A stretch of DNA of 64,000 nucleotides from Parcubacteria group bacterium (GTDB lineage: Bacteria; Patescibacteriota; Minisyncoccia; 2-02-FULL-40-12), in assembly GCA_016186395.1 (NCBI GenBank), contig JACPLU010000001.1, forward strand, positions 5,036 to 69,035. The letters run 5' to 3'. Below, piece by piece: positions 769 through 33,986 of the stretch. The stretch's first letter is position 1. Each line of letters starts with the position of its first letter. Position numbers and translations under genes: made by a program. The notes beneath the pieces were generated by a model. That model saw only the letters and a list, made by a program, of their open reading frames with translations, was not told the origin of the DNA and did no database searches.

Positions 769-830
769 CTTTTCGAGTTTCATGACTTAAGCTTCAAGTT
801 TTATGTTTTAAGTTTCATGTTTCAGGCTCT

Positions 831-1178
831 ATGATTAGCGATATTTTTTGTAAAATCGTTCAAAAGGAACTGCCGGCAGAAATAGTTTATGAAGACGAAG
901 AATTTTTAGTTATAAAAGACATTCATCCGCAAGCACCGGTGCATTTGTTGGTAGTTCCTAAAAAACATTTTGATCAGATTCATGCGGCGAGTCATGAGGA
1001 TTTAGATTTGCTTGGTAAGATGGTGCTTGTAGCTGGTAAAGCCGCAAAACTTGCAGGAACTGAAGAAAAAGGTTATAGATTAATAATTAATCAAGGTCAA
1101 GATGGGGGTCAATTAGTTCCTCATTTGCATTTGCATTTATTAGGCGGAAAAGCGTTAGGGCCTAAGATAATCAGATAA
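831..1178 (+). CDS. HIT-family (histidine triad) nucleotide hydrolase
   Basis: C-terminal HLHLHLLGG histidine-triad motif. Typical ~115-aa size. Confidence 0.85.
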   Translation: MISDIFCKIVQKELPAEIVYEDEEFLVIKDIHPQAPVHLLVVPKKHFDQIHAASHEDLDLLGKMVLVAGKAAKLAGTEEKGYRLIINQGQDGGQLVPHLHLHLLGGKALGPKIIR

Positions 1179-1186
1179 GCTCAACG

Positions 1187-1252
1187 TCTAATGACTAAGG
1201 TCTAAGGCAAATTGGTTTCTAGCTTTAGACTTTAGACTTTAGACTTTAGACT
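1187..1252. repeat. Family A intergenic hairpin repeat (GTCTAAAG...CTTTAGAC with tandem TAGACTTTAGAC units)
   Basis: Contains tctaatgactaagg...ctttagactttagactttagactttagac. Related copies occur at 13128, 14424, 24743, 27427, 33982 and 37771. Confidence 0.8.
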
Positions 1253-1255
1253 AGT

Positions 1256-1522
1256 TTGGTTCAAGTTTACCGAAAACCAAGAGAAACAATCCCAAGCCTA
1301 ATCAGGCGTTTTAGTCGTGCAGTTCAAACAAGTGGTGTTTTAGATCAGGCCAAGGCTAAAAGATCTAGTCGTCGTAAGCCGTCAGAAAGAGTTATCAAGC
1401 AAAGAGCGATTATGGCTTTTCATTTAAGAAAACTTAGAATACATCTTGAAAAGGTGGGTCAATATAGTGAAGAAAAATTTGAGATTGAAAAAAAGAAGTT
1501 GAAACAAAAACTCGGACTCTAA
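1256..1522 (+). CDS. rpsU: 30S ribosomal protein bS21
   Basis: LIRRFSRAVQTSGVL...RRKPSERVIKQRA matches the S21 pattern (ALRRFKR..EK.G.L....R.YEKP...RK). Basic protein of 88 aa; TTG start, so the exact start is uncertain. Confidence 0.7.
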   Translation: MVQVYRKPRETIPSLIRRFSRAVQTSGVLDQAKAKRSSRRKPSERVIKQRAIMAFHLRKLRIHLEKVGQYSEEKFEIEKKKLKQKLGL

Positions 1523-1542
1523 AGTGTAAATTTCAACTCTTA

Positions 1543-1666
1543 GAAAAATTATATCCTTTCAGCACGCAAATTTTCTCCAGCGGGAAATTTGCTAAGTGCA
1601 GCATTAGATTTTGTTCTTTCTAGAACAAACCAAGCAATCTAATGCCGCAATTACTTCAAGGATATA
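1543..1666 (+). other. Candidate structured RNA or complex attenuator: three nested hairpins closed by a 15-bp helix
   Basis: gaaaaattatatcctt (1543-1558) pairs with aaggatataatttttc (1651-1666). Internal hairpins are gcaaattt-N11-aaatttgc, gcattagatt...aatctaatgc and ttgttct-ttc-tagaacaa. Confidence 0.4.
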
Positions 1667-1682
1667 ATTTTTCTCCCCCATC

Positions 1683-2180
1683 TTGTTAAAAGAAAGAATT
1701 AAAAATGATGTGGTTCAGGCACTAAAGATGCATGACGAAAAAGGGCGGTTAGTTTTAGGTTCTTTGCTTGCCGTTATTCAAAATAAAGAGATAGAGAAAA
1801 GGAGTTTTGCCGTAAAGAAAAATCTTTTTAGTTCCCAAGAAGAGTTAGTAAAGGCGTCGGAGCTTTCTGACGATGACGTTATTCAAGTTATTCAATCTGA
1901 AGTTAAAAAACGGAAAGAAGCAGTTGAACTTTTTAGAAAAGGTAACAGAGATGAACTGGCTCAAAAAGAAGAAGATGAAATCATAATTTTATCTGGATAT
2001 TTGCCGGAACAACTAAACGAGGAAGAGTTGAAAGAAATAGTTAGAAATACGATTAATGAATTGGGTGCGAAGGATGTTAAAGAAATGGGTAGAGTAATAA
2101 ATACTGTTATGCAAAAAGTTAAAGGCAGGGCTGACGGTTCTATGGTTAGTAGGTTGGCTAAAGATTTATTGGTTTCATGA
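1683..2180 (+). CDS. GatB/YqeY-domain protein
   Basis: The C-terminal region (LPEQLNEEELKEIVRNTINELGAKDVKEMGRVINTVMQKVKGRADGSMVSRLAKDLL) is typical of the YqeY/GatB C-terminal domain. Confidence 0.8.
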   Translation: MLKERIKNDVVQALKMHDEKGRLVLGSLLAVIQNKEIEKRSFAVKKNLFSSQEELVKASELSDDDVIQVIQSEVKKRKEAVELFRKGNRDELAQKEEDEIIILSGYLPEQLNEEELKEIVRNTINELGAKDVKEMGRVINTVMQKVKGRADGSMVSRLAKDLLVS

Positions 2181-2665
2181 AGTCAAATTTTACTTTCAAT
2201 AATTTCACGAAAATTCGGTCCTTGAAAAAGGGCTTTTTTAATAAAGTGATAAGCAAGGTTTTAGAAGAACTTAAATTAGGAAGAGAAAATTTGGCTTTTA
2301 GTTTAAGTATTGTTGATTCAAAAAGAATGAAGGAACTCAACAGAAATTATAGAGGAAAAAACAAAACCACGGATGTGCTTTCGTTTTCTTATGTTAAGGA
2401 CGGAAAACTTTCTAATGCAGAATTGTTACGTTTTATCAAAAAAGAAAAAATTGTGGAACTCGGGGATATTTTTATTGATCCGTCGGTAGCAAAGAAACAA
2501 GCCCAGCAAGTTAAAAATGACGGCCATTCTTTAGAGTATGAATTTGCAATGTTAACAACTCATGGGCTCTTACATTTACTTGGTTATGATCACGAACGTT
2601 CTAAGAAGGACGAAAAGAGGGTGTATGATCTCCAAGCTAAAATTTTAAAGGGTTTGCACTTATAA
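2177..2665 (+). CDS. ybeY: rRNA maturation endoribonuclease YbeY
   Basis: HGLLHLLGYDHE zinc-binding motif (H..H..GYDH). Overlaps the upstream gene by 4 bp. Confidence 0.85.
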   Translation: MKSNFTFNNFTKIRSLKKGFFNKVISKVLEELKLGRENLAFSLSIVDSKRMKELNRNYRGKNKTTDVLSFSYVKDGKLSNAELLRFIKKEKIVELGDIFIDPSVAKKQAQQVKNDGHSLEYEFAMLTTHGLLHLLGYDHERSKKDEKRVYDLQAKILKGLHL

Positions 2666-2797
2666 TACATATTTTGTGATTTAGGTTTCATGTTTTACGT
2701 TCCATTTTCCCGCCTTATCCACCTTTAAATTTGTAAAATAGGGCCTCAATTGTTATTGTTAAATCAATAAATTATTCTATTTTTAAATTTTTAGTTT

Positions 2798-4045
2798 TTG
2801 GCTATGCCCAAAGGTCACGTAATAACGGGTCTTGATATCGGAAACTCTGCGATCAAAGCTGTGATGGTTGAAATACATCCTGATTTTGCGCGTCCGCAAG
2901 TTATAGGGATCGGTACAGCGACTTCAAATGGTATGAGGCATGGCATGGTGGTAGATATGGAAGAGATAGTAAAGGATTTAGACATAGCGGTAAATCAAGC
3001 GGCTCAAACTTCCGGAGTGAAACCTAATAGGGTTTATGTAAATATTAACGGTTCATATATTAGAACGCAGAATTCCCGAGGAGTTATAGCGGTTTCTCGC
3101 GCAGATAATGAGATTTCCGAAGCGGATGTTCAAAGAGTAATTGAGGCGGCATCGGCAGTAAGCTTACCGCCAAACAGAGAAATACTTCATATTATACCAA
3201 GACATTTTATCGTAGATGGGCATGACCAGGTTAAAAATCCAATAGGTATGACAGGCGTTAGGTTAGAAGCAGAAGTTATGTTAATTGACGTTTTATCGCC
3301 ATATATAAAAAATTTGGCTAAGGCAGTAAATCAAAATAATTTGGAAGTAGCAGAATTTGTTTTTACTCCTCTTGCGGCATCTCGTGCTGTTTTAGATAAG
3401 AAGGCAAGAGAACATGGGGCGATGGTTTTAGATATTGGTGGCGGTTTATGCAGTATGGCGATTTTTGAAGAAGGGGATCTTGTCTATACCGGGGTTTTGC
3501 CTTTAGGTAGCCGGCACATTACAAATGATCTGGCTATTGTACTTAGAACATCTCTAGATAATGCTGAGCAGATAAAATTGGAATATGGGTTTGTCGGTAC
3601 TGACAACCTTTCTAAAAAAGATGTTGTTAACCTCTCGGGGGTTATTGGTGAAGAAGAATTTATTGTTCCTAAAAAACAAATTGCTGAAGTTGTAGAAGCT
3701 CGAGTTTTAGAACTTCTTGATCTTGTAAATAAAGAACTTAAAAGAAGTGGTAAAAATTTATTGCCGGCTGGCGTGATGTTGACCGGCGGTGGTATAAAGC
3801 TTCCAGGCCTGGTTCATTTAGTAAAAGAAACTCTTAAACTGCCGGTGCATCTTGGTATCTCAAAAGAGGTTGACGGCATCGTAAATCGTTTAGACGATTC
3901 TGTTTTTACTACTGCAGTTGGCCTTACATTGTGGGGTGCTGACAAAGAAGGGGCCTATTTAAATAAAAGACATTCTTTTCAGGTGTTTGGCAAGAATGCG
4001 GCTATAAATAAAATGAGGGATTGGTTTAAAAATTTTATGCCCTAG
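2798..4045 (+). CDS. ftsA: Cell division protein FtsA
   Basis: Actin-like ATPase N-terminus (ITGLDIGNSAIKAVMVE), a LDIGGG phosphate loop, and its position immediately upstream of ftsZ. Confidence 0.9.
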   Translation: MAMPKGHVITGLDIGNSAIKAVMVEIHPDFARPQVIGIGTATSNGMRHGMVVDMEEIVKDLDIAVNQAAQTSGVKPNRVYVNINGSYIRTQNSRGVIAVSRADNEISEADVQRVIEAASAVSLPPNREILHIIPRHFIVDGHDQVKNPIGMTGVRLEAEVMLIDVLSPYIKNLAKAVNQNNLEVAEFVFTPLAASRAVLDKKAREHGAMVLDIGGGLCSMAIFEEGDLVYTGVLPLGSRHITNDLAIVLRTSLDNAEQIKLEYGFVGTDNLSKKDVVNLSGVIGEEEFIVPKKQIAEVVEARVLELLDLVNKELKRSGKNLLPAGVMLTGGGIKLPGLVHLVKETLKLPVHLGISKEVDGIVNRLDDSVFTTAVGLTLWGADKEGAYLNKRHSFQVFGKNAAINKMRDWFKNFMP

Positions 4046-4071
4046 TTTCTTAAAACAAGGAAAACTAAAGA

Positions 4072-4098
4072 GGAACGGATTCAAGGTCCGTTTTTGTT
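4072..4098 (+). terminator. Rho-independent terminator after ftsA
   Basis: aacggat-tcaagg-tccgtt hairpin followed by a T-run (tccgtttttgtttg). Confidence 0.5.
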
Positions 4099-4214
4099 TG
4101 TTACTCCTTGCATTGTAAAGTCATGTATGATAATGAATATGAAAACAACGGTTTATGGATTTTGTAACATTTGGATCCAAATGTTAAGTGTTTCTTCATA
4201 AATCGATATAAATA

Positions 4215-5348: not shown

Positions 5349-5410
5349 TTGAAATTTGTGGATAATTACAAAAAAATGCCCAAGTGGCGTTTTTTTGTTG
5401 GTTTCTGGGT

Positions 5411-5449
5411 TTGGTGAATAATACTATTTCTCTTTCTTCGTCCCCCCCC
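5411..5449. mobile_element. Partial copy (left end only) of the MITE-like element, followed by a C9 homopolymer
   Basis: tttggtgaataatactatttctctttcttcg matches the left arm of the 14994 and 30098 elements, then ccccccccc. Confidence 0.55.
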
Positions 5450-13127: not shown

Positions 13128-13214
13128 TTAATGTCTAGTGACTAAAGTCTAGAGTCTAGGGTCTAAAGACTTTAAAAAATTTTGCTTTAGACTTTAGCCA
13201 TTAGACTTTAAGCC
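13128..13214. repeat. Family A hairpin repeat
   Basis: taatgtctagtgactaaag...gtctaaagac-tttaaaaaattttg-ctttagac tttagccattagactttaag. Confidence 0.8.
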
Positions 13215-14423: not shown

Positions 14424-14482
14424 CAAAAGTCTAAAGCAAAATTTTTTAAAGCCTTTAGACCTTAGTCTTTAGACTCTAGACG
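14424..14482. repeat. Family A hairpin repeat
   Basis: gtctaaagc-aaaattttttaaagc-ctttagac cttagtctttagactctagac. Confidence 0.8.
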
Positions 14483-14485
14483 GAT

Positions 14486-14953
14486 TTGAGAAGAGGCCCA
14501 ATAACCAAAAAATTGTTAGAACCAGATTTAAAATATCAGAGTTCTTTGGTTACCCGTTTTATAAATTATGTAATGGATTCAGGTAGGAAGTCAGCTGCCA
14601 AAAAGATCGTTTATGGAGCCTTAGCTCACGCTGAAAAAAAAGTTAATAAACCTGCCCTAGAAATTTTAGATGCTGTTATTAAAAATGCCGGTCCGGAACA
14701 GGAACTACGCTCTCGGAGAGTCGGCGGCGCTAATTATCAGGTGCCTCATCCAGTAAACGCGGATAGAAGAGTAACTTTAGCGTATCGTTGGATTATCGCT
14801 GCGGCTCACTCTAAAAAAGGAAAACCAATGTCAGAAAAACTTGCTCAGGAGTTAATTGACGCCTTTAATAATACTGGAATCGCAGTCAAGAAAAAGACAG
14901 ACACACATAAAATGGCCGATGCGAATAAAGCTTTTGCTCATTTTGCGTGGTAG
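14486..14953 (+). CDS. rpsG: 30S ribosomal protein uS7
   Basis: S7 pattern (DSGRKSAAKKIVYGAL...RRVGGANYQVP). Confidence 0.95.
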   Translation: MRRGPITKKLLEPDLKYQSSLVTRFINYVMDSGRKSAAKKIVYGALAHAEKKVNKPALEILDAVIKNAGPEQELRSRRVGGANYQVPHPVNADRRVTLAYRWIIAAAHSKKGKPMSEKLAQELIDAFNNTGIAVKKKTDTHKMADANKAFAHFAW

Positions 14954-14993
14954 AATTTTTCGCCTTTCTCAATAAAATATAAAATTGAAAGAA

Positions 14994-15198
14994 CTTGATA
15001 AATAATACTCTTTCTCTTTCTTCGCAAACCCCAGCGTGGTTTGCTCAGGGGTTGAGCTCTTTGCTCTTATCCAACTCTTTCTTTTGAAAGAGCTGGGTAA
15101 ACCATGCCCGTCCCGATTTCTGCTCCGCAGAATCGAGGATCCTCGATAGCATCGGGACTACGGGCTCAAAACCCGTTCAAGAGTATTATTCACCAAGT
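14994..15198. mobile_element. MITE-like element, copy 1 (about 205 bp; 19-bp TIR CTTGGTGAATAATACTCTT; palindromic core AATCGAGGATCCTCGATT; central hairpin cassette variant 1)
   Basis: Left end cttgataaataatactctt and right end aagagtattattcaccaag are inverted. Both arms are nearly identical to the inverted arms of the 30098-30317 copy. It is inserted between rpsG and fusA. Confidence 0.8.
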
Positions 15199-19909: not shown

Positions 19910-19914
19910 ATAAC

Positions 19915-19995
19915 GTTCTGTGAGCCCGCCTATGGGCGAGACGAGCGGCTAGCGGAATTTATCCCGAGGAGCATAAGCGACGAGGGACGGATTCT
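19915..19995 (+). other. Anomalously GC-rich segment immediately after rpsJ
   Basis: gagcccgcctatgggcgagacgagcggctagcgg...cccgaggagcataagcgacgagggacgg, in an otherwise AT-rich context. Confidence 0.35.
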
Positions 19996-20124
19996 TTAAA
20001 AAATGGAAAACGAACCAAAAACTGAAAAATATTTTCTCAACAAAGACGAAAAATAGAGATTCTTGGCTCAATTAAAGTTGCAGCATTAGAGATACAAAAA
20101 AGGGCGGCAGAGCTGATTGACTTA

Positions 20125-20277
20125 ATGCAACAAGCAGAAGACAATATTGATAAGAATGGGGAAATAACTATGACCGAAGATCTAAAAGAAGGTGTTCTTA
20201 GAGGAATCTATAATATAAAAAGGAGGCAAGAAGTTTTTTCTCGGATTGAGCATATAGAAGAGTTTAAGGATAAATAA
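20125..20277 (+). CDS. Possible small ORF (50 aa from the ATG; open from 20032) in the rpsJ-rplC spacer
   Basis: MQQAEDNIDKNGEITMTEDLKEGVLRGIYNIKRRQEVFSRIEHIEEFKDK. Not in the supplied track. Coding status uncertain. Confidence 0.25.
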   Translation: MQQAEDNIDKNGEITMTEDLKEGVLRGIYNIKRRQEVFSRIEHIEEFKDK

Positions 20278-20292
20278 AATTATTCCCTTCCT

Positions 20293-20350
20293 CTTGCCAT
20301 AATTCATGGTTCGAGCTTCAAGCTTCATGTTTCATGAATAGGTGGCAAGC
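20293..20350. repeat. Family B repeat (TTCATGTTTCA/GTTTCAAG units) inside a 7-bp hairpin cttgcca...tggcaag
   Basis: cttgccataattcatggttcgagcttcaagcttcatgtttcatgaataggtggcaag. Confidence 0.75.
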
Positions 20351-20477
20351 GATAAGGTAGTAATGCCTTAGTAAATGAAAATTATGGTTTTACCGTTACT
20401 AAAGCCAGACTAAAATTAAAGTATACAAAGATTTAGCGTTTTTATTATGCCCAGCTAAATCTGGGTTTTTTGTTGAA

Positions 20478-21113
20478 ATGACTAAGTTTATTCTAGGTAA
20501 AAAAATCGGTATGTCGCAAGTATTTAAAGAAGACGGAGCGGTTATTCCGGTTACTTTAGTTGAAGCCGGACCAGTTACAGTCACCAAGCTTAGGACAAAA
20601 GAAAAAGACGGTTATGAAGCGATCCAGATAGGATCGCAAAAATCAAAAATCAAAAATCCCCGGCCTCGCCAAGCGAAGCGGGGCGGGCAAAAATCAAAAT
20701 TTGAGAACCTGAAAGAATTTAAACCCAAGTTTCAAGATTCAAGTTTCAAGATTCAAGACTTCACTCTTGGTCAAAAAATTGATGTATCTATTTTTGAAGA
20801 AGGAGAAGTTGTAAAAATTAGCGGAGTTTCTAAGGGTAAGGGTTTTCAAGGAGGAGTGAAACGTCATGGATTTCACGGTATGCCGGCAAGTCATGGTCAT
20901 AAGCATGTTACTCGTACTCCAGGATCAATCGGGCAGAGGTTTCCACAGCACACTCTTAAAGGAACAAGAATGGCTGGTCATATGGGTCATGAAAGGGTAA
21001 CTGTTGAGGGGTTAAAAGTTGTTAAGGTAGACAAGGAAAATAATATTTTATTGATAAAAGGAGCGATTCCGGGTAGACGGGGAACTCTAGTTGAGATTGT
21101 TAATGATAATTAA
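20478..21113 (+). CDS. rplC: 50S ribosomal protein uL3 (contains an in-frame family B-like tandem unit at 20728-20760)
   Basis: GKKIGMSQVF...VTKGKGFQG...HGSIGQRFPQ. The internal aagtttcaagattcaagtttcaagattcaagac encodes KFQDSSFKIQDF. Confidence 0.95.
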   Translation: MTKFILGKKIGMSQVFKEDGAVIPVTLVEAGPVTVTKLRTKEKDGYEAIQIGSQKSKIKNPRPRQAKRGGQKSKFENLKEFKPKFQDSSFKIQDFTLGQKIDVSIFEEGEVVKISGVSKGKGFQGGVKRHGFHGMPASHGHKHVTRTPGSIGQRFPQHTLKGTRMAGHMGHERVTVEGLKVVKVDKENNILLIKGAIPGRRGTLVEIVNDN

Positions 21114-23387: not shown

Positions 23388-23455
23388 AAACGTGAAACCT
23401 GAATCATGAAACTTTAAATTTAAGAATGTTTCAAGTTATAGGTTTCAAGTTGTAG
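23388..23455. repeat. Family B repeat
   Basis: aaacgtgaaacctgaatcatgaaactttaaatttaagaatgtttcaagttataggtttcaagttg. Confidence 0.75.
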
Positions 23456-23457: not shown

Positions 23458-24021
23458 TTGCAGGTAACCGCACAACTAAATCAGTTAAGAATTGCACCGA
23501 GAAAGGTCAGAATAGTAGCACATCAATTACGTGGGCTTGATATAGTATCGGCCAAAAGTAAATTGAAATATGTGATAAGACGAGCGAGTCATCCGATTGA
23601 AAAGTTGCTTGATTCGGCAATATCAAATGCTGTGAATAATCATGGTCTTGATAAGGATTCACTTTTCATAAAAGATTTGGTGGTAAATGAGGGTAGAAAG
23701 TTAAAACGTTTTAAGGCTAGAGGATTTGGCATGACCATGCCTATTCAAAGAAAATCAAGTAACTTAAGGATAGTTTTAGACCAATTGTCAGAAGAAAAAT
23801 TAGAAAAGATTAAAACAAGATTGTCTAGAAGAAAAGTTTTAAATCAAATGCCTGAAGTTAAGGAATTGAAACAAGGTTTAGAAACGGAAAAAAGGAAGTC
23901 TTCTGATAAAGAATATGAAAAGCCCAGGTTTACCGAGAAACAGAGTCTAGGTAAAAATAAAAGTTTTCTCGGAGGCATAAAGGGTTTAAGTAGAAAGATG
24001 TTTAGAAGAAAATCAGTGTAA
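23458..24021 (+). CDS. rplV: 50S ribosomal protein uL22 with a roughly 70-aa basic C-terminal extension (TTG start)
   Basis: RIAPRKVRIVAHQLRG...AISNAVNN...FKARGFG. Confidence 0.9.
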   Translation: MQVTAQLNQLRIAPRKVRIVAHQLRGLDIVSAKSKLKYVIRRASHPIEKLLDSAISNAVNNHGLDKDSLFIKDLVVNEGRKLKRFKARGFGMTMPIQRKSSNLRIVLDQLSEEKLEKIKTRLSRRKVLNQMPEVKELKQGLETEKRKSSDKEYEKPRFTEKQSLGKNKSFLGGIKGLSRKMFRRKSV

Positions 24022-24022
24022 A

Positions 24023-24117
24023 ATCGATTCAAATATACAAATTGATGCGAATGATACGAATCAGACTAGAGACAAATGAATGCTATTCGTATAATTAGTA
24101 TATTTGTATCGCAGAAT
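24023..24117. repeat. Family D leader-like repeat (about 90 bp), copy 2
   Basis: aaaatcgattcaaatatacaaattgatgcgaatgatacgaatc...gtataattagtatatttgtatcgcag. Its first 44 bp match 26152-26196 at 41/44 bp. Confidence 0.8.
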
Positions 24118-24747
24118 TTGGCACAAAAAAATTCACCCATCGCAAATAGGCTTGGAATTATCGAGGATTGGAGATCTCGGTGGTTTTCTATTAAAAACTA
24201 CAAATCCTATCTTCATGATGATTTGAGAATCCGTGAATATTTAGACAAGCGGTTACGGGGTTTTTCTGTGGACAAGATAGAAATTGAAAGAAGCCCGGGC
24301 CAGTTAATGTTGCGTCTATGGACTGCTAGGCCGGGTTTGATTATTGGTCGTGGGGGTACTGGTATAGAAGAGTTGAAAAGCGAGTTGGAGTCAATTATTG
24401 AAGATAAAACGAGAGTTAGACTCGAAGTTCAAGAAATAAAAAAACCGACGATGTCTGCCGCTATTGTAGCCGAACAGATTGCCGAACAGATTGAAAGAAG
24501 GGTGCCATTTAGAAGAACGATGAAACAGGCCTTCGCAAAAATTATTGCTAATCCTGAAGTTAAGGGAGCCAAAATTCAAATTTCTGGAAGGCTGGACGGG
24601 AGCGAGATTGCCAGAGAAGAACATACTGAATCAGGCCTACTTCCTTTACAGACATTGAGGGAAAAAATTGATTATGCTCAAAATACTGCTTTTACAACTT
24701 ATGGCACCGTAGGAATCAAGGTGTGGATCTATAAACCAGGCGACTAA
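24076..24747 (+). CDS. rpsC: 30S ribosomal protein uS3 (the track start lies inside repeat D; probable true start is TTG at 24118)
   Basis: IANRLGIIEDWRSRWF...KH-domain GRGG...TMKQAFA...GRLDGSEIAR. The first 14 codons are encoded by the repeat. Confidence 0.9.
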   Translation: MNAIRIISIFVSQNLAQKNSPIANRLGIIEDWRSRWFSIKNYKSYLHDDLRIREYLDKRLRGFSVDKIEIERSPGQLMLRLWTARPGLIIGRGGTGIEELKSELESIIEDKTRVRLEVQEIKKPTMSAAIVAEQIAEQIERRVPFRRTMKQAFAKIIANPEVKGAKIQISGRLDGSEIAREEHTESGLLPLQTLREKIDYAQNTAFTTYGTVGIKVWIYKPGD

Positions 24748-24832
24748 AGACCAAAGTCTAAAGCTCAGTGATTAAAGACCAAAGCCAGAAATTTAATTAG
24801 CCTTAGCCTTTAGTCATTAAACTTTAGACAAG
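24743..24832. repeat. Family A hairpin repeat (the rpsC stop codon lies inside it)
   Basis: gactaaagaccaaagtctaaag...ctttagtcattaaactttagac. Confidence 0.8.
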
Positions 24833-25243: not shown

Positions 25244-25250
25244 TATAATT

Positions 25251-25460: not shown

Positions 25461-25711
25461 TGGATAACCCTAAAATTAAAATAAAACGCAAGCTCAAGGG
25501 AGTTATAGTATCTGATAAAATGCAGAAAACTGTTGTGGTGTCCATAACCAGATTAAAGAAACATCCAAAGTATAAGAAATTTTATAAAATAACCAATCGT
25601 TTTAAAGCTCATGATGAAAAAAATGAATATAAGGTTGGTGAAAGGGTTATCATTCAAGAAACCAGGCCGATATCAAAAGAGAAGCACTGGAGAGTTGCGG
25701 GCAGGGTTTAG
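25460..25711 (+). CDS. rpsQ: 30S ribosomal protein uS17
   Basis: GVIVSDKMQKTVVVSITRLKKHPKYKKF. Confidence 0.9.
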   Translation: MDNPKIKIKRKLKGVIVSDKMQKTVVVSITRLKKHPKYKKFYKITNRFKAHDEKNEYKVGERVIIQETRPISKEKHWRVAGRV

Positions 25712-25800
25712 AAATTTTAAACATGAAACTTGAAATTTGAAGCATTTCTAAATGTTCCATGATTCACGCTTCATGTTACATGATCCTTGATTCAACTTCG
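25712..25800. repeat. Family B repeat
   Basis: aaacatgaaacttgaaatttgaagc...gttccatgattcacgcttcatgttacatgatcc. Confidence 0.75.
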
Positions 25801-26152
25801 TTCAATGGTTCAGGTTGCAGATAATACCGGTGCTAAAAAAATCGGAGTTATTCGCGTACTCGGCGGTTCGTCCAGGAGATATGGTCAGATAGGAGATATA
25901 GTGGTCGGATCAATTAAAGAAGCAGAACCACGTAAACAGGTTAAGAAAAAAGATAAAGTTCGTTGTTTGATTGTCCGTCAGCGCAAGGCTTTTAGAAGAA
26001 AAGATGGTACGTATATAAAATTTGATGACAATTCAGTTGTAATTTTGGAAGGGAAAGAACCAAAGGGAGGAAGAATTTTTGGTCCTATTCCAAGAGAGAT
26101 TAAAGAATTAGGATATGCTACCATCGCTTCGTTGGCAGAAGAGCTGGTGTAA
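25787..26152 (+). CDS. rplN: 50S ribosomal protein uL14
   Basis: MIQ...VADNTGAKK...GGS. Confidence 0.95.
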   Translation: MIQLRSMVQVADNTGAKKIGVIRVLGGSSRRYGQIGDIVVGSIKEAEPRKQVKKKDKVRCLIVRQRKAFRRKDGTYIKFDDNSVVILEGKEPKGGRIFGPIPREIKELGYATIASLAEELV

Positions 26153-26236
26153 ACCGATTCAAATATACGAATTGATGCTAATGATACGAATCTTATTAGT
26201 ATAATTAGTATGCATTAGTATATTGGTATCGCGGAA
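26152..26236. repeat. Family D leader-like repeat, copy 3
   Basis: aaaccgattcaaatatacgaattgatgctaatgatacgaatc...attagtataattagtatgcattagtatattggtatcgcgg. Confidence 0.8.
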
Positions 26237-26542: not shown

Positions 26543-26590
26543 AAAATGAGGTTGAAAAACGATATGTCGGCTTTATAAAAGCGATTTTTT

Positions 26591-27148
26591 ATGAAAAAAG
26601 AGTCAAATACACTTAAAGAGAAATATAAGAAAGAAGTAATTCCTGCGATGCAGGCTAAATTTGGTTATAAAAGCATTATGGCTATACCTAAGATTGAAAA
26701 AGTAACAGTAAATGTTGGGATTGGCAGGGCTTTAAAAGAAACAAATCAGAAGTTGATAGATCGGATAAAACATGATATAGCTACAATCACTGCTCAAAAG
26801 GCAGCACCGCGTAGAGCTAAAAAATCTATTGCTGGCTTTAAAACAAGGCAAGGGATGGTAGTTGGCTATCAGGTTACTTTAAGGGGGAAAAGAATGCTTG
26901 ATTTTATGGAACGTCTTATTAAAATCGCTCTGCCAAGAGTAAGGGATTTTAGAGGATTACCCGAATCTTTATTTGATCAGAATGGCAATTTAAATATAGG
27001 AATAAAAGAACAAAATATCTTTCCAGAAATAGAGTTTGAGTCGGCAAAAGATCTATTTGGTCTACAGATAACCATAACGACTTCAGCAAAAACTAAGGAA
27101 GAAGGAGTAGAATTGCTTAAATTGATGGGATTCCCGATTAAATCATGA
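26591..27148 (+). CDS. rplE: 50S ribosomal protein uL5
   Basis: PKIEKVTVNVGIG...GFKTRQGMVVG. Confidence 0.95.
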   Translation: MKKESNTLKEKYKKEVIPAMQAKFGYKSIMAIPKIEKVTVNVGIGRALKETNQKLIDRIKHDIATITAQKAAPRRAKKSIAGFKTRQGMVVGYQVTLRGKRMLDFMERLIKIALPRVRDFRGLPESLFDQNGNLNIGIKEQNIFPEIEFESAKDLFGLQITITTSAKTKEEGVELLKLMGFPIKS

Positions 27149-27214
27149 AGCATGTAGCATGTAACCCGAATCATTTAAAAAGTTTTAGGTTTCAGGTTTC
27201 AGGTTTTACGATTC
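27146..27214. repeat. Family B repeat supplying the rplE stop (TCATGA) and the rpsZ start (TTCATGG)
   Basis: aatcatgaagcatgtagcatgtaacc...gtttcaggtttcaggttttacgattcatgg. Confidence 0.75.
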
Positions 27215-27400
27215 ATGGCAAAAAAATCACTAATAGTTAGATTAAAAAAACCAAGAAAATTTCAGGTTCGTAGTAGGGGCCATTGTTTTATTTGTGGACG
27301 GACCCATGGATATTTGAGTAAATTTGGTCTTTGTAGGATACATTTTAGAGAATACGCTAATAGGGGTTTGATTCCAGGAGTAAAGAAGGCATCATGGTGA
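27215..27400 (+). CDS. rpsZ: 30S ribosomal protein uS14, zinc-binding type Z
   Basis: 61 aa, [23 protein letters not shown]. Confidence 0.9.
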
Positions 27401-27426
27401 TAATGTGCCTCACTAACGTTCGGCAC

Positions 27427-27477
27427 GACTAGGGACTAGGGACTAAAGCCTTAGACTATAGACATTAGACTTTAGAC
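27427..27477. repeat. Family A hairpin repeat
   Basis: gactagggactagggactaaagccttagactatagacattagactttagac. Confidence 0.75.
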
Positions 27478-27483
27478 AAAAAT

Positions 27484-27885: not shown

Positions 27886-27889
27886 TAAA

Positions 27890-27950
27890 GTATTAAAAAT
27901 TAAACATCAAACCTTATTTTTGATTTTTGATTTTTGAATTTTAATTTTGT
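27890..27950. repeat. Family C repeat (TTTTGA/TCAAAA units)
   Basis: catcaaaccttatttttgatttttgatttttgaattttaattttgtttga. Confidence 0.7.
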
Positions 27951-28493: not shown

Positions 28494-28504
28494 TTTTTAT
28501 AAGG

Positions 28505-28858: not shown

Positions 28859-28871
28859 ATTATAAAAATAC

Positions 28872-29004: not shown

Positions 29005-29005
29005 G

Positions 29006-29599
29006 GTGGATACACAAATTTCTGAACAAACTCAAAATAATACAGGGGCCGAAGAGAAGGCCATTTTAGAAATACCTAAAGAACCAGTTTTAGAAGAAAT
29101 ACGTTCCGAGAAGGAAGTAATTGCTAGAATAGAGGGAAGAAATAGAAGAAGAGATGACGAATTTGATCAAAAAGTTTTGGACGTGGCAAGGGTTACCAGG
29201 GTAACTAAGGGAGGAAAACGTTTTACTTTTAGGGCAACGGTTGTTTTGGGTGATCATAAAAACAGAGTAGGTGTTGGAACGGGAAGAGGGGCAGATGTTG
29301 CTCAAGCTATTGAGAAAGCTTCACGTTTAGCTAAGAAAAATGCAATTACTGTTTTGTTAAAAAAGGGAACAATTTCACATTTGGTTGAAGCAAAGTACGC
29401 AAGCGCCAGGGTGCTTTTAAAACCAGCTATGCCTGGTTCTGGAGTAAAGGCTGGGGGTCCAGTAAGAATAATTTCGAAATTGGCCGGCATTCAGGATATT
29501 ACAAGTAAACTTATTTCAAGAACTAACAATAAGATAAATATTGCTCAGGCGGTTATTCAAGCATTAAAGCAATTAAAGAATCTAGAAATTAGAAAATAG
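29006..29599 (+). CDS. rpsE: 30S ribosomal protein uS5 (GTG start, N-terminal extension)
   Basis: VARVTRVTKGGKRFTFRATVVLGD, then the C-terminal domain. Confidence 0.95.
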   Translation: MDTQISEQTQNNTGAEEKAILEIPKEPVLEEIRSEKEVIARIEGRNRRRDDEFDQKVLDVARVTRVTKGGKRFTFRATVVLGDHKNRVGVGTGRGADVAQAIEKASRLAKKNAITVLLKKGTISHLVEAKYASARVLLKPAMPGSGVKAGGPVRIISKLAGIQDITSKLISRTNNKINIAQAVIQALKQLKNLEIRK

Positions 29600-29650
29600 A
29601 ATTTAGAATGTCGATTCTATATTTTTATTTTCTATTTCCAATTTTTAAAA

Positions 29651-30100
29651 ATGCGACTGCACGAAATTAGCTCAACAACTGGAAGAAAGAAAAAAAGAAT
29701 TGGGAGAGGAGGTAAAAGAGGTTCATATTCCGGCCACGGTGTTAAGGGTCAAAAAGCTAGAGCTGGTGCCGGAGTCAAACCTGGTTTTAGGGGTGGTGAT
29801 ACACCTATTTGGAAATTGTTCCCAAAGAAAAGAGGAGCTTCACGAAAACTTGAAATTAAAAAGCGTGGGTTTAGATTACATCAATTAAAACCTGTTGTGA
29901 TAAATCTTGATACTTTAGAGCGTTATTTTAAAGATGGGGACGCTGTTTCTCCTCAAACACTTCAAGAAAAGGGGTTAATTAAAAATACGAAACACAAGAT
30001 TAAAATCCTTGGTAGAGGCGGGCTGACAAAAAATTTAGAATTTAAAGATGTTATGTTTTCAGCTTCTGTATCAAAAATAATAAGTTTAAATAAGAAATAG
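29651..30100 (+). CDS. rplO: 50S ribosomal protein uL15 (no L30 gene lies between rpsE and rplO)
   Basis: GRKKKRIGRGGKRGSYSGHGVKGQKAR. Confidence 0.95.
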   Translation: MRLHEISSTTGRKKKRIGRGGKRGSYSGHGVKGQKARAGAGVKPGFRGGDTPIWKLFPKKRGASRKLEIKKRGFRLHQLKPVVINLDTLERYFKDGDAVSPQTLQEKGLIKNTKHKIKILGRGGLTKNLEFKDVMFSASVSKIISLNKK

Positions 30101-30317
30101 AAGTGGGCTTGGTGAATAATACTCTTGAACGGGTTTTGAGCCCGTAGTCCCGATGCTATCGAGGATCCTCGATTCTGCGGAGCAGAAATCGGGACGGGCA
30201 TGGTTTTCTCTGTCTGGATTTACAGTCCAGATAGAGAAAGAGCGAAGGGCTCAACCCCTGAGCAAACCACGCTGGGGTTTGCGAAGAAAGAGAAAGAGTA
30301 TTATTCACCAAGCTCAC
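30098..30317. mobile_element. MITE-like element, copy 2 (inverted relative to copy 1; central cassette variant 2), inserted between rplO and secY
   Basis: cttggtgaataatactctt...aagagtattattcaccaag. The arms are the reverse complement of copy 1's arms. The central 45 bp differ and form an 11-bp hairpin (ctctatctgga/tccagacagag). Confidence 0.85.
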
Positions 30318-30367
30318 GAGTTGCTGCTTGACCATCAATAATTATAGTTTAGTTAAATTAATATTAT

Positions 30368-31630
30368 ATGGATAAAATTTTAAAACTTTTTAAAATACCC
30401 GACCTTAGAAAAAGAGTGTTTTTTATAGTCGCTTTACTAATAGTATTTAGGGTGGCTGCCGCTGTGCCTGTTCCAGGTATAGATACTTCGCGTTTGGCTC
30501 AATTTTTTGAACAAAACCAACTTTTTGGATTGATAAGTTTGTTTACAGGGGGTGGTTTAGAGAATCTTTCTATTGTCATGTTGGGGGTTGGTCCTTATAT
30601 TACTGCCTCAATTATTATGCAGCTTTTAACTATGATCTTCCCGTCTTTGGAGCAAATGTATAAGTATGAAGGAGAAGCTGGTAGAGCCAAGTTTAATCAA
30701 TATTCAAGGCTTCTAACTGTACCGTTGGCAATTTTACAAGGTTTTGGCTTTTTAACTTTACTTTCTAGACAGCAAGGATTGGTTGGCTCTCTTTCTTTGA
30801 TTCAGTGGGTTACTGCCTTATTAGTGGTTACGGCTGGGACTATGTTTGTAATGTGGCTAGGGGAGTTGATTACTGAAAAGAATCTTGGAAATGGAGTTTC
30901 CCTAATTATTTTTGGCGGGATTATATCCCGGGGACCGCAAACCATTCGTCAATTAGCCGTAGGTTATGACCCTAGTCAACTGTTTACTTATATTGGTTAT
31001 TTTGTTTTGGCGATCATTATTATAGCCGGTGTGATTTACATATCTGAAGCTCAACGCAACATACCCATTACTTATGCAAAAAGAGTCCGGGGTTTTAAAG
31101 TCTATGGCGGAGTTTCAACTTATCTTCCTATGAGGGTTAACAATGCAGGTGTTATTCCTATTATTTTTGCTCTTTCACTATTATTATTTCCTGGTATGGT
31201 AGCTAATTTTTTCGCCGGTTCTAATATAGCTTTCATTTCTAAGATTTCACAGTTTTTCACGACCTTTTTGAATAATCAGTTTGCTTATGGAAGTATGTAT
31301 TTTCTTTTAGTTGTTTTATTTACATACTTTTATACCGCTGTGACATTTAGTCCAAAGTCAATTTCGGAAAATATTCAACGTCAAGGTGGCTATATACCTG
31401 GAATTAGACCTGGTCCGGCTACGGCAGATTTCTTAACTCATTTATTAAATCGGGTAACTTTAGTCGGTGCTTTATTCCTCGGGCTAATAGCAGTTTTGCC
31501 GTCTATAGTTCAGGGTGCAACTGGTATTACTGCCTTTGCTCTCGGCGGAACCTCTTTATTAATTGTCGTTTCCGTTGCTCTAGAGGTTATGAAGCAAGTT
31601 CAAGCCCAGCTTGCGATGTATGAATATTAA
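30368..31630 (+). CDS. secY: Preprotein translocase subunit SecY
   Basis: 10-TM protein in its conserved position after rplO. Confidence 0.95.
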   Translation: MDKILKLFKIPDLRKRVFFIVALLIVFRVAAAVPVPGIDTSRLAQFFEQNQLFGLISLFTGGGLENLSIVMLGVGPYITASIIMQLLTMIFPSLEQMYKYEGEAGRAKFNQYSRLLTVPLAILQGFGFLTLLSRQQGLVGSLSLIQWVTALLVVTAGTMFVMWLGELITEKNLGNGVSLIIFGGIISRGPQTIRQLAVGYDPSQLFTYIGYFVLAIIIIAGVIYISEAQRNIPITYAKRVRGFKVYGGVSTYLPMRVNNAGVIPIIFALSLLLFPGMVANFFAGSNIAFISKISQFFTTFLNNQFAYGSMYFLLVVLFTYFYTAVTFSPKSISENIQRQGGYIPGIRPGPATADFLTHLLNRVTLVGALFLGLIAVLPSIVQGATGITAFALGGTSLLIVVSVALEVMKQVQAQLAMYEY

Positions 31631-31707
31631 CTTTCTTTGAATTTTTTGGTTGAAATATTTTTCTAAATTTGATATTTTAAGATCGGTTCATTAAAATAAA
31701 AGGAGAG

Positions 31708-32382
31708 ATGACGGTTCATTCTAAAAAAACAATTTTAATTTTCGGTATGCCTGGTTCGGGTAAAGATACCCAAGCCGATCTTTTGCAAAAAAATACCGGT
31801 TTAGTTAGAGTAAGAACTTCTAAATTATTAGAAGATAAATTTAATAATACTGATCCCAGCGACACCTTTTTAATGGAACAAAAAAAGATTTGGCACGAAG
31901 GCAAACTTAACGATCCAGAATGGGTTACTTCTATCGTTATAGAAAAAATTAAAGAATTAAGTGGGAAAAATAAAGGAACCATACTTAGCGCTTCTCCAAG
32001 AACCTTATATGAGGCCAAAGTAGAAATGCCGTTGTTTGAAGAATTATATGGCAGAGACAATATCAAAATTTTCTTGCTTAAATTAAGTGACGAAGAAGCG
32101 GTAAAAAGAAATACAAAACGGCTGGTGTGTGAAGCTAACGAACATCCTATAGATCCAAAATTGGTGGAAGAAGGAATAAAAATTTGTCCAATAGACGGCA
32201 GCCTAGTTGTTACTAGGACATTAGATAATGAAGAAACTATGAAAATGCGTTTAAGCGAGTTTTATAATCGAACTTCTCCAATCTTTGATTTTTTAAGGGA
32301 AAACAGCTTTCAAATAATTGAAATTAATGGTGAACAGCCAATAGAAAAAGTTCATGAGGACATAATGGAATATTTGGCATGA
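31708..32382 (+). CDS. adk: Adenylate kinase (long, zinc-lid type)
   Basis: P-loop GMPGSGKDTQA, lid with Cys pairs (CEANEH...CPIDGS), and the secY-adk-map order. Confidence 0.8.
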   Translation: MTVHSKKTILIFGMPGSGKDTQADLLQKNTGLVRVRTSKLLEDKFNNTDPSDTFLMEQKKIWHEGKLNDPEWVTSIVIEKIKELSGKNKGTILSASPRTLYEAKVEMPLFEELYGRDNIKIFLLKLSDEEAVKRNTKRLVCEANEHPIDPKLVEEGIKICPIDGSLVVTRTLDNEETMKMRLSEFYNRTSPIFDFLRENSFQIIEINGEQPIEKVHEDIMEYLA

Positions 32383-33146
32383 TTAATCTTAAAGGCGAAA
32401 AAAATATAAAAGTGATGCTTGAAGGCGGCAAAATTTTAGGACAAATGCTTCAAGAGTTAGGTAACTTTGTTAAGCCCGGCATTACAACAAACGATGTAGA
32501 CAAGCTTGCAAAAGAGCTTGTTTTTAGCTTTGCAAAAAAATATCCTAAGGCAAAAATTCAACCTGCTTTTTTAGGTTACAATGGGTTCCCCGCCCATATT
32601 TGTATTTCAGTGAATGACGAAGTGGTTCATGGTATTCCTTCTGAAAAAGTTTTAAATGAGGGAGATGTTGTTGGCCTTGATTTTGGAATTACTTATTACG
32701 GCTGGAATCTTGATTCTGCCATAACTGTTGGTGTTGGGAAAATAAGTAGACAAGCCCAGAAATTATTAGAGGCAACAAAGAAAGCTTTAGAAATAGGAAT
32801 TGACATGGCTAGGGCTGGAAATAAGTTGGGTGATCTGGGCTTTAGCATTCAAAAATTTTTAGAGTCAAATGATTTTGCCGTAGTTAGGGATTTGGTTGGG
32901 CATGGAATAGGAGAGAAGCTACACGAAGATCCATATGTGCCAAATTACGGTGAACCAGGAGAGGGCGAAGTGTTAAAAGAGGGAATGGTAATTGCGATTG
33001 AGCCAATGGCAACTTTAGGTGATTGGCACGTGGCTTTAGACAAAGACGGTTGGACCTGGAGAACTAAAGATAAAAGTATTGCGGCTCACTTTGAGCATAC
33101 GGTGGCGATAACTAAAGATGGACCACTGGTATTGACAAGTCATTGA
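32379..33146 (+). CDS. map: Methionine aminopeptidase type I
   Basis: pita-bread metal ligands (D...D...H...E...E): VGLDFGI, VGHGIG, AIEPM. Confidence 0.95.
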   Translation: MINLKGEKNIKVMLEGGKILGQMLQELGNFVKPGITTNDVDKLAKELVFSFAKKYPKAKIQPAFLGYNGFPAHICISVNDEVVHGIPSEKVLNEGDVVGLDFGITYYGWNLDSAITVGVGKISRQAQKLLEATKKALEIGIDMARAGNKLGDLGFSIQKFLESNDFAVVRDLVGHGIGEKLHEDPYVPNYGEPGEGEVLKEGMVIAIEPMATLGDWHVALDKDGWTWRTKDKSIAAHFEHTVAITKDGPLVLTSH

Positions 33147-33204
33147 AGGCCTTTTTTTTATTCTGGTTTTTGATATTATTAAATTAATAATCTTGGGATT
33201 CAAA

Positions 33205-33268
33205 ATGCATAACAAGTTTCAGATTTTATGATCCATGTTTCACGTTTTGCGTTCCATGTTTCAAGAAT
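33205..33268. repeat. Family B repeat overlapping the start of the GT2 gene
   Basis: atgatccatgtttcacgttttgcgttccatgtttcaag encodes the first 12 codons (MIHVSRFAFHVS). Confidence 0.7.
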
Positions 33269-33986
33269 TAAACTTTCAGTCATTGTTCCTGCCTTTAATG
33301 AATCAGAAAGAATAATCCCGACTTTAGATTCTCTAAATAATTATTTGTCTAAACAGTCTTATGATTGGGAAGTTTTGGTAGTAAACGATGGTTCGACTGA
33401 CAATACTGCTGAAGTGGTTAGGAGTTTCATGTTTCATGTTTCAGGTTTCAGGTTGTTGGATAACAAAGAAAATCATGGCAAGGGTTGGGTAGTAAGGCAG
33501 GGAATGCTAGCGGCAGAAGGAGATTTTAGATTATTTATGGATGCTGATAACGCAACCAGAATTGAAACTGTTGAAAAATTCTGGCCCCTTTTTAATCAAG
33601 GTTATGATGTAGTAATTGCTTCAATTGGTATTAAGGGAGCGGACGTAGCTGGTACAGAGAAATTTTATCGGCGTATCTTTGGAAAACTGGGTAATCTTTG
33701 GATTCAATTTTGGGTTACACCCGGGATATTGGATACACAAAGAGGATTTAAAATGTTTTCAAAAGTGGCAGCCGGTAAAATTTTTCCAAAGCTTAAAATT
33801 CTAAAGTGGGGATTTGATGTAGAGGTTTTGGCTTTGGCAAGAAAATTTACTTTTAAGATAAAAGAGGTTCCAATAAAATGGGTTAATGATCCGAAGAGTC
33901 ACGTTAAGTTAACTGCTTATATTCAAGTTTTACTTGAGGTTTTGAAAATAAGATGGAATCTATGGACAAACAAATATAATGTCTAA
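33228..33986 (+). CDS. Family 2 glycosyltransferase (polyprenyl-phosphate sugar synthase-like); contains a second in-frame family B unit at 33424-33456
   Basis: LSVIVPAFNESERI...VLVVNDGSTDNT, DxD-like MDADN. The internal gtttcatgtttcatgtttcaggtttcagg encodes SFMFHVSGF. Confidence 0.8.
   Translation: MIHVSRFAFHVSRIKLSVIVPAFNESERIIPTLDSLNNYLSKQSYDWEVLVVNDGSTDNTAEVVRSFMFHVSGFRLLDNKENHGKGWVVRQGMLAAEGDFRLFMDADNATRIETVEKFWPLFNQGYDVVIASIGIKGADVAGTEKFYRRIFGKLGNLWIQFWVTPGILDTQRGFKMFSKVAAGKIFPKLKILKWGFDVEVLALARKFTFKIKEVPIKWVNDPKSHVKLTAYIQVLLEVLKIRWNLWTNKYNV

Follow-up and report, generated by a model that had tools for sequence, protein, structure and literature searches.

What are the short repeats that stand at gene junctions, and in frame inside genes, in a 64-kb stretch of contig JACPLU010000001.1 (the window), which originates from a metagenome-assembled genome (MAG) of the Parcubacteria, and thus of the Candidate Phyla Radiation (CPR)? 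The initial annotation of the window had singled out one set of them, family B, as being built of 8- or 11-nucleotide (nt) units which are tolerated inside essential genes and which donate start and stop codons, thereby implying a special mobile element. All of the junction and in-frame copies listed there were found, at or within a few bases of their given coordinates, and it was established that family B is real and concentrated at gene junctions, its loci flanking or sitting in the genes HIT, ybeY/ftsA, the S10-spc ribosomal-protein operon, map, a GT2 and a GT4 glycosyltransferase and triosephosphate isomerase. The unit, however, is the heptamer G-n-T-T-C-A-n, period 7 being the only period enriched, and family B belongs to a population of 7-nt tandem arrays that occur throughout the genome. 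We consider it probable that family B represents heptanucleotide simple-sequence repeats (SSRs), which slippage remodels and which are tolerated under weak selection, stops and starts being captured secondarily. The implied special mobile element proved too strong a reading, as family B is one of several families of a widespread phenomenon that has been described in other bacteria.

The periodicity is evident from several measures. When sliding 28-nt windows were matched against themselves at a threshold of at least 22 matches in 28, 66 windows were recovered at lag 7 as compared to 0 to 2 at each of the other lags from 3 to 12, while Tandem Repeats Finder, applied to the whole window, returned approximately 35 rows with a period of 7, its output also showing super-periods of 14 and 21 nt. 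Where an array is taken as 21 nt with 16 matches (20 arrays) or 15 matches (25 arrays), the 64-kb window contains 20 to 25 period-7 arrays, as compared to 0.3 to 0.65 in first-order Markov shuffles and 0 to 7 for periods 5 to 11, and the spaced pattern TTCA-N-[GC]-N-TTCA was observed 13 times against 0.7 expected. The consensus of family B, from 64 units at 11 loci, is G1 (97%), n2, T3 (97%), T4 (80%), C5 (77%), A6 (94%), n7, and that of family A, from 57 units in the window, is C1-n2-T3-T4-A5-G6-n7; additional families have the units TTTTTGA/CAAAAAT, AGAATTT and AAAGTTG, such that at least four heptamer families coexist in the window, family B being one of them. The arrays are mostly intergenic (14 of 20, approximately 70%, in the approximately 20% of the window that is non-coding, the coding fraction being 0.79 by the method used to locate arrays and 0.85 from untrimmed open reading frames [ORFs]), and 9 of the 20 (approximately 45%) have an inverted match nearby that is 9 nt or longer. 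Beyond the copies listed initially, approximately 13 more heptamer arrays of other unit families were found.

All arrays are given on the plus strand, and the family-B copies at junctions range from runs of direct units to hairpins that fill a spacer. Approximately eight direct units (GTTTCAT GACTTAA GCTTCAA GTTTTAT GTTTTAA GTTTCAT GTTTCAG) occupy positions 771-826 in the spacer that separates a PsbP-like ORF from the HIT gene, ending 4 nt before the HIT ATG at 831 and forming no significant hairpin (z -0.5), and a short direct array of three to four units in the ybeY-ftsA spacer (2684-2711) is likewise without a hairpin (z +0.2). The copy at 20293-20350, in the 568-nt spacer between rpsJ and rplC (19910-20477), has its units at 20302-20339 within a 7-bp inverted repeat, CTTGCCA/TGGCAAG, which had been noticed before, was confirmed here and gives a good fold (-23.4 kcal/mol, z -3.7). 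A hairpin fills the rpsS-rplV spacer (23388-23455, z -4.0), with nTGAAAC units at 23388-23418 forming the 5′ arm and GTTTCAn units at 23424-23455 the 3′ arm; inverted arrays occupy the rpsQ-rplN spacer (25711-25800, z -1.6), where the 3′ arm runs into the TTG start of rplN at 25787; and the two remaining junction copies are a hairpin between rplE and rpsZ (27139-27217, z -2.2) and an array between map and the GT2 gene (33181-33266, z -2.3). Family-B copies are 28 to approximately 90 nt long and match one another at 71-78% in register, as would be expected of arrays of one heptamer, so that there is no element-length consensus. Besides its array, the rpsJ-rplC spacer holds a 50-codon ORF (20125-20277); further on, at 20449-20472, a terminator-like hairpin is formed by GCCCAGCTAAATCTGGGT with T6 behind it, and only 6 nt separate it from the rplC ATG.

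The part played by these units at gene ends was found to differ from one codon to the next. As had been claimed, the rplE TGA (27146-27148) lies inside a repeat unit: both in the window and in a relative with 94% identity in L5, the protein ends ...K-S-TGA inside ATCATGA, the TCA TGA being part of the first unit, and L5 of a relative with 76% identity ends ...K-TAA. Similarly, the stop codon of rpsE is located within an AGAATTT array, and that of the GT2 gene (GTC TAA) within the first family-A unit, in the window as well as in both close relatives. The rpsZ ATG (27215-27217) is also inside a unit, but it was not donated by it; the start position is ancestral, the 94% and 76% relatives having GTG and TTG, respectively, where the window has ATG, and the unit therefore merely overlaps the start. 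At the junction of map and GT2, two relatives with 86% protein identity read ...TTGAATT ATG AAG CTC..., where the window carries approximately 81 extra nt of family-B array followed by ATT AAA CTT, and this copy is a true, recent 81-nt gain with respect to both relatives. Its flanks carry AATTA(A) on both sides, albeit ambiguously, and a frame-preserving alignment puts the junction elsewhere. The array had been described as providing the GT2 start, which holds in so far as the ATG at 33228, within the array, is the first in-frame start of the ORF, 39 nt (13 codons) upstream of the ATT at 33267, but not for the NCBI protein model, which begins at that ATT. In 19 GT2 orthologues, the residue aligned with this ATT is the Met start. 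Plausibly, the array ATG rescues GT2 initiation following a change of the ancestral ATG to ATT.

Inside genes, the arrays sit in variable segments of the encoded proteins. GTTTCAn is stop-free in every frame and is, for this reason, the only orientation present inside genes, every family-B coding copy conforming to it; its complement nTGAAAC carries TGA, and all frames are hit after three units. The family-B array in rplC (20726-20763; GTTTCAA GATTCAA x2, encoding KFQDSSFKIQDF) is present as first described, but it does not represent a clean insertion, as it is located in a length-variable linker of L3, the second part of which measures 8 to 22 residues among 22 orthologues and 16 in the window. 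A CAAAAAT x3 array, absent from the initial list, is in frame in the same gene (20631-20660, encoding QKSKIKN), and a similar AAAATCA array is found at the same place in two other loci of the comparative set described below (L033 and L045). In-frame heptamer arrays were detected in this linker (residues ~50-82) in 8 of 49 other Patescibacteria rplC genes (L007, L012, L021, L025, L026, L027, L033 and L045) in addition to the window (20631-20763), with unrelated units such as AAATTCC, GAATCAT, CAAATGA, CAATCAG, CAAGCGA and AAAATCA, and the variable linker of L3 is thus a recurrent array hot spot in an essential gene. A GC-rich 28-nt stretch of rplC (20660-20687) was considered as a dispersed mini-element nested in heptamers and rejected, being single-copy in the window and present only in L081 among 83 loci; it probably represents nothing but Arg/Pro/Gly/Ala codons. 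In L081, whose L3 is 90% identical to that of the window, the stretch lies between CAAGATT units rather than CAAAAAT. In this part of L081 (1-230), the place where the L3 N-terminus is expected is taken by unrelated DNA that includes the start of a gene on the minus strand, and this contig may be either a chimeric scaffold or the product of a rearrangement at arrays.

The second in-frame copy of the initial list, SFMFHVSGF in the GT2 protein (33421-33457), had likewise been raised as a possible insertion. Alignment revealed, as the initial annotation had specified for a refutation, homologous residues both in 19 orthologues and in the solved structure of the dolichol-phosphate mannose synthase 5mlz: the segment is non-conserved, gap-free in all 19 orthologues, and aligns, with a single-residue gap, to the region where helix 2 of 5mlz ends and strand 3 begins, and owing to this lack of length difference the copy is not an insertion. 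In the two relatives with 86% protein identity the site reads AGTTTCA TGTTTCA TGCTCCA CGTTTCA; the array is shared with these relatives, in which it is less homogeneous than in the window. The idea of in-frame insertions is better matched by copies which had not been listed. A family-A array in lepA (44414-44447) encodes LPKDERLKTKEE; compared with solved LepA structures the protein has an insertion of 23 residues, and this segment makes up its first half. In triosephosphate isomerase two ATGATTT units followed by family-B units (36093-36127) encode MIYDLSSKFQVS in a loop that is 4 residues longer than in the Thermotoga maritima enzyme. Another unlisted family-B array encodes AFQAPSFKLQDSKL in the GT4 glycosyltransferase (42196-42233).

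A comparative set of 80 rplC loci from GTDB species representatives, totalling 1.13 Mb and here designated by L numbers, was used to assess the distribution of the arrays. The L3 of the window matches, at 100% identity, an NCBI protein assigned to a MAG of a Parcubacteria group bacterium, and its nearest species representatives belong to Yanofskybacteria/Paceibacterota, with 61-62% identity. Across the 80 loci 191 period-7 arrays were counted, as compared to 25 to 62 for periods 5, 6, 8 and 9; within the Patescibacteria arrays were found in 34 of 49 loci, at a density of 2.1 per 10 kb against 0.2 to 0.6 for other periods, and 115 of the 159 arrays in Patescibacteria loci other than the window are intergenic. 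Two Thermomicrobiales are very dense in arrays with GC-rich units (CACTTGY, CCGGTAG, GGCGGAA), and arrays are rare elsewhere in the set. These two (L040 and L066), MAGs of the high-GC Chloroflexota, have the densest hairpin arrays of the loci examined, 11 to 15 per 10 kb, between ribosomal-protein genes that possess Shine-Dalgarno sequences. The common property across lineages is the period and not the sequence. In ribosomal-protein operons, array-bearing junctions exceed array-free ones (median 8-15 nt) by 60-100 nt, and across those of the Patescibacteria occupancy is sporadic, none of the junctions being consistently occupied; arrays behave as additions to junctions. In addition, triple units of GTTTCAn were encountered in at least 120 metagenome and at least 101 viral-contig stretches, which vary in GC content and in many cases contain several other heptamer arrays as well.

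Among close relatives, the arrays are subject to turnover. The number of units at the junction of GT2 and galT differs among the window, L082 and L083, and at the rplE-rpsZ junction a heptamer hairpin is present in four lineages with L5 identities of 100, 94, 80 and 76%, built of family B (100%), of family B with different unit sequences (94%; L084 and L085, the arms in the window and L084 being different), of TAGTGNC/TAATGGC (80%) and of AGAATTN (76%). Other junctions of these relatives bear unrelated, non-heptamer hairpins. L082/L083 and L084/L085 are independent assemblies from different samples, with L084 and L085 identical to each other, and the homologous arrays which they contain show that the arrays did not arise as an artefact in assembling this MAG. 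In the 94% relative the DNA following rpsZ (L084 1565-1752, L085 1237-1424) is not rpsH; it is GC-richer and structured-looking, with palindromes such as GGCCGAATAGGCC and CTCGCCAAAGGCGAG.

Every feature described above has precedent in known heptamer-repeat systems, and it is on this basis that family B is read as a heptanucleotide SSR: the units are tandem and 7 nt long, they exceed both chance and other periods, they are mainly intergenic, and relatives differ in unit number. Heptanucleotides are, according to summaries of the survey by Mrazek, Guo and Shah (2007) in PMC4679880 and PMC4692102, the most abundant class of long SSRs in most prokaryotic genomes, and a possible reason for the period, as related in PMC4679880, is the length of DNA in contact with the polymerase during slippage. 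The likeness extends to head-to-tail 7-nt tandem units, an excess over other periods, a mostly intergenic location, a patchy occurrence across phyla and a proposed origin by slippage; the present case differs in that several families coexist in a very small genome and in that many arrays are inside the ribosomal-protein operon. Xanthomonas genomes harbour approximately 185 (GGGANTN)n arrays whose unit has two variable positions, 70-75 of them as convergent pairs capable of forming stem-loops (Rehm et al. 2015, PMC4692102). They resemble the window arrays in having many loci per family, five conserved and two variable positions, convergent pairs (here 9 of 20) and a mostly intergenic location, but the Xanthomonas unit is G-rich and G-quadruplex-prone whereas the window units are AT-rich and incapable of forming G-quadruplexes, and no GGGAATC dimer occurs in the window within 2 mismatches.

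A close parallel in genomic setting is offered by the TAACTGA arrays of marine Beggiatoaceae, some cyanobacteria and Bacteroidetes, which are located directly upstream of starts lacking a ribosome-binding site and in ribosomal-protein operons, including upstream of L3 (MacGregor 2015, PMC4679880), and which overlap upstream stops, one orientation having stops in all frames, while a reverse copy is occasionally translated near the margin of an ORF (PMC4679880). The sites in ribosomal-protein operons, the starts without ribosome-binding sites, the stop overlap and the peripheral coding copies all recur here; in contrast, TAACTGA repeats are nearly all direct, with one indirect case reported, and nearly half of the window arrays are inverted pairs. 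Within 2 mismatches, the window contains 0 matches to a TAACTGA dimer. The STRR heptamers of heterocystous cyanobacteria, which Mazel and colleagues are said to have described in 1990, reportedly also comprise several families per genome, in intergenic positions and with units such as CCCCAGT, and are thus alike in the coexistence of intergenic heptamer families, albeit with different units and in a different phylum. A search of the window for the STRR1-3 units (CCCCAGT and others) returned one 2-mismatch hit, which is the level of chance. Calothrix heptanucleotides are mentioned in PMC4692102. An earlier report of heptamer arrays in Patescibacteria/CPR was not found, and their occurrence there seems to be new.

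The following mechanism could account for these arrays. They would be made and remodelled at the DNA level through unit-wise slippage and duplication of 14- or 21-nt blocks, and many would gain an inverted copy, so that two arms can pair as a hairpin. They would persist where purifying selection is weak, as in the spacers of co-transcribed genes, in the first or last codons of ORFs and in length-variable surface segments of proteins. Since 7 and 3 have no common factor, an array of at least three units passes through each of the three frames; the nTGAAAC orientation, presenting TGA in every frame, would end an upstream ORF at once, and TTTCATG would offer an ATG in every frame. Start and stop codons in units would then be secondary captures, made where an array reaches or runs past the end of a gene, with no designed function. 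We infer that the generator is slippage or template switching, that the arrays are near-neutral and that their hairpins may have an effect on polycistronic mRNA.

Several observations weigh against this interpretation, as purely local slippage does not predict that two to three unit families recur at 8 to 11 loci of one genome, nor that five of seven unit positions are 77-97% conserved with positions 2 and 7 free. The GT2 internal array is 7-nt periodic yet without length change, which slippage alone does not explain, and at the rplE-rpsZ junction a hairpin was kept in four lineages even though the unit family was replaced, which could reflect selection for structure at that site. Furthermore, in 86 of 119 hairpins of ribosomal-protein operons the purine-rich arm comes first, on the 5′ side (p ~1e-6), an order that is not an obvious outcome of a neutral process at the DNA level, and a polarity of 65 versus 33 was seen in an independent set, in which the left-arm bias is also present in convergent and divergent contexts; part of this bias may be noise. 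A concentration of stop codons in the 5′ arm was rejected as its cause (21 versus 19 in Patescibacteria).

These observations bear on the possibility, doubtful as it seems to us, that the hairpin arrays are selected RNA elements which act in translational coupling or uncoupling, as an RNase processing site, as a barrier to 3′-exonucleases or as a weak attenuator, repeats being the easiest route to long stems. Most inverted arrays do fold better than shuffles (z -2 to -6.8; family B -2.2 to -4.0, family A down to -6.8), their stems span the whole spacer from the upstream stop to within 0-12 nt of the downstream start, and both the arm polarity with respect to transcription and the retention of the rplE-rpsZ hairpin despite unit replacement agree with such a role. 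The sense fold, however, was the more stable one in 39 of 83 hairpins and the antisense fold in 43, so that a sense-strand advantage, and with it the G-U signature of selection on the transcript, is lacking, as fits an origin at the DNA level. Several family-B copies are direct-only and unstructured, no junction is consistently occupied in Patescibacteria, where most spacers measure 8-15 nt and are array-free, and the polarity, being present in convergent and divergent contexts of the second set as well, may in part be noise. In the Rfam scan of the window no family covers any array, RNase P RNA and tRNAs being the only hits at gathering threshold; none of the terminator-like sites of the window (GC-rich stem and U-tract on the sense strand) is a heptamer array; and nothing was found at the arrays with a simple promoter consensus. 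T-rich direct arrays do not favour the sense strand upstream of starts (35 purine-rich versus 27 pyrimidine-rich). This absence of strand preference in direct-only intergenic arrays speaks against the units serving as targets of a protein that binds single-stranded nucleic acid over a 7-nt footprint, such as a cold-shock-domain or S1-domain protein, that would be recruited cooperatively to junctions for post-transcriptional control, a proposal we regard as very unlikely. Its appeal lies in the five conserved and two free positions, as in a recognition motif, in the statement, cited in PMC4679880, that Bacillus subtilis CspB binds one heptamer per protein, and in the similar interpretation given to TAACTGA repeats upstream of start codons (PMC4679880). 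The units are, however, wholly different between genomes 76-80% apart in L5 and between phyla, which makes a conserved sequence-specific binder unlikely, no cold-shock or S1 candidate was recognised among the small window ORFs tested, and there is no relation to Shine-Dalgarno usage. Shine-Dalgarno sequences are nearly absent from the window (starts checked include 831, 20478, 23040 and 27215), with only adk (31708) having AAGGAG, and 40 of 41 Patescibacteria ribosomal-protein loci lack them whether arrays are present or not; a link of arrays to initiation without Shine-Dalgarno sequences was rejected, as the most array-rich locus, L040 of the Thermomicrobiales, has them at 86% of its genes.

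That family B is a miniature mobile element, comparable to MITEs (miniature transposable elements that carry inverted repeats), REPINs or Rickettsia palindromic elements (RPEs), which moves to junctions and occasionally in frame into genes, is in our estimation quite unlikely. It would account for the 81-nt block at map-GT2 that is absent in two close relatives, for the 7-bp inverted repeat bounding the 20293-20350 copy, for the presence of one unit family at 11 loci and for the many GTTTCAn stretches in metagenomes and viral contigs. Against it stand the want of an element-length consensus among copies that vary in length from 28 to approximately 90 nt, the sharing of the same architecture by other unit families, the fact that relatives differ in unit number and not in the presence or absence of a fixed element, and the GT2 internal copy, which is not an insertion; in a search of family B for a MITE consensus, consistent terminal inverted repeats or target-site duplications none was found, only the 20293 copy being flanked by inverted repeats and the flanks of the 81-nt gain being ambiguous as to a duplication. 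RPEs are reportedly 100-150 nt long with a family consensus, and are said, after Ogata and colleagues in 2000, to form clear in-frame insertions adding surface peptides to housekeeping genes. The likeness thus consists of hairpin-forming repeats with in-frame copies in housekeeping genes, but the coding copies of the window are direct arrays of 33-38 nt without an element consensus, of which at least one, the GT2 internal copy, is not an insertion. REPINs are fixed doublets of imperfect palindromes, 20-40 nt long and tied to the RAYT transposase (Bertels and Rainey 2011, PMC3116915); as with repetitive extragenic palindromes (REPs) in general, they are short, extragenic, hairpin-forming and placed at junctions, but they are not tandem heptamers, and no fixed REP-like palindrome consensus was seen among the family-B copies of the window. 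An assembly or binning artefact is scarcely credible: the source is indeed a MAG, and in the related contig L081 an apparent chimera or rearrangement coincides exactly with an array, but other samples, assembled independently, contain homologous arrays, coding copies leave the frames of conserved genes open, and the same architecture is found in dozens of unrelated genomes. A final proposal, which we consider unlikely, is that the arrays are the output of an active period-7 process, either enzyme-mediated template switching or a very small mobile-repeat system, which disperses unit families, installs polar purine-first hairpins between co-transcribed genes and writes peptide segments into the L3 linker (in nine Patescibacteria lineages), LepA and triosephosphate isomerase. 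Both this active dispersal and a functional RNA hairpin are less likely than passive SSR dynamics, which remains our preferred explanation.

The remaining arrays of the window belong to the other unit families. Nearly all genes of the window are on the plus strand, with a GC content of approximately 0.36 and a GC skew that is positive throughout. Family A forms hairpins between the HIT gene and the next ORF, a weak S21 match (1186-1254, z -3.4), upstream of an M50 peptidase gene (13129-13213, -37.4 kcal/mol, z -6.8), at the end of the GT2 gene and in the spacer before the GalT-like gene (33978-34060, z -3.1), and at the junction of pgk and a DHH-family gene (37770-37826, z -3.9). It also occurs as a direct array (14450-14483, z -0.7) upstream of an ORF starting at 14486, in a spacer that is putatively rpsL-rpsG from operon order only, as inverted arrays between rpsC and rplP (24735-24832, z -2.4), and as GACTAGG/TTAGACT arrays between rpsZ and rpsH (27424-27480, z -1.3). 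A TTTTTGA-family hairpin is present between rpsH and rplF (27886-27950, z -3.2), and an AGAATTT-family hairpin covers the end of rpsE and the rpsE-rplO spacer (29572-29649, z -3.6), with the rpsE stop inside its 5′ arm. A long AAAAGTC/TTTTTGA hairpin (46310-46414, -28.6 kcal/mol, z -4.7), the helices of which are interrupted every 7 nt, ends 3 nt before a DivIC-like gene, and an AAAACTC/AAGTTGA hairpin (52585-52667, z -2.7), with 5-bp helices and 2x2 internal loops at a 7-nt period, lies between an ABC-ATPase gene (51913-52596) and an FtsX-domain gene (52656-53591), read as ftsE and ftsX; a short AGAAnnT heptamer array (53583-53615) is found at the end of the latter gene. In both of these hairpins internal loops of 1-2 nt recur every 7 nt, the two free unit positions being non-complementary, with purines on both arms.

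The window also contains repeats that are not built of heptamers. A 40-nt sequence, AACTTGnnnAATAATACTCTTTCTCTTTCTTCGCAAAnCC, is present in three copies, 75-90% identical, upstream of gene starts (5408-5447, 14992-15031 and 35058-35097) and may be a shared promoter or leader element. A 68-nt repeat, 78% identical, is located at the rplV-rpsC (24002-24069) and rplN-rplX (26132-26199) junctions, and a palindrome, AGTCCCGA..TCGAGGATCCTCGATT, occurs twice, after rplO (30146-30174) and just upstream of tRNA-Thr (50430-50458). As regards RNA genes, RNase P RNA at 39148-39548 scored 102.7 in Rfam, barely above the gathering threshold of 100, and ARAGORN predicted two overlapping tRNA-Thr(tgt) genes at 50475-50617.

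The genomes of CPR bacteria are tiny and gene-dense and are represented by thousands of MAGs, and they therefore provide a clean comparative system for heptamer repeats, as illustrated here by a junction hairpin that is kept while its unit is replaced, by a new array beside a lost start, and by an L3 linker that repeatedly hosts in-frame arrays. The arrays also affect annotation, since units contain stops and starts and an ATT is taken as the GT2 start, and assembly, as contigs break or turn chimeric at arrays. If an active period-7 process, unlikely as we hold it to be, should prove to be at work, the arrays would be drivers of operon architecture and of protein-loop evolution in CPR bacteria.

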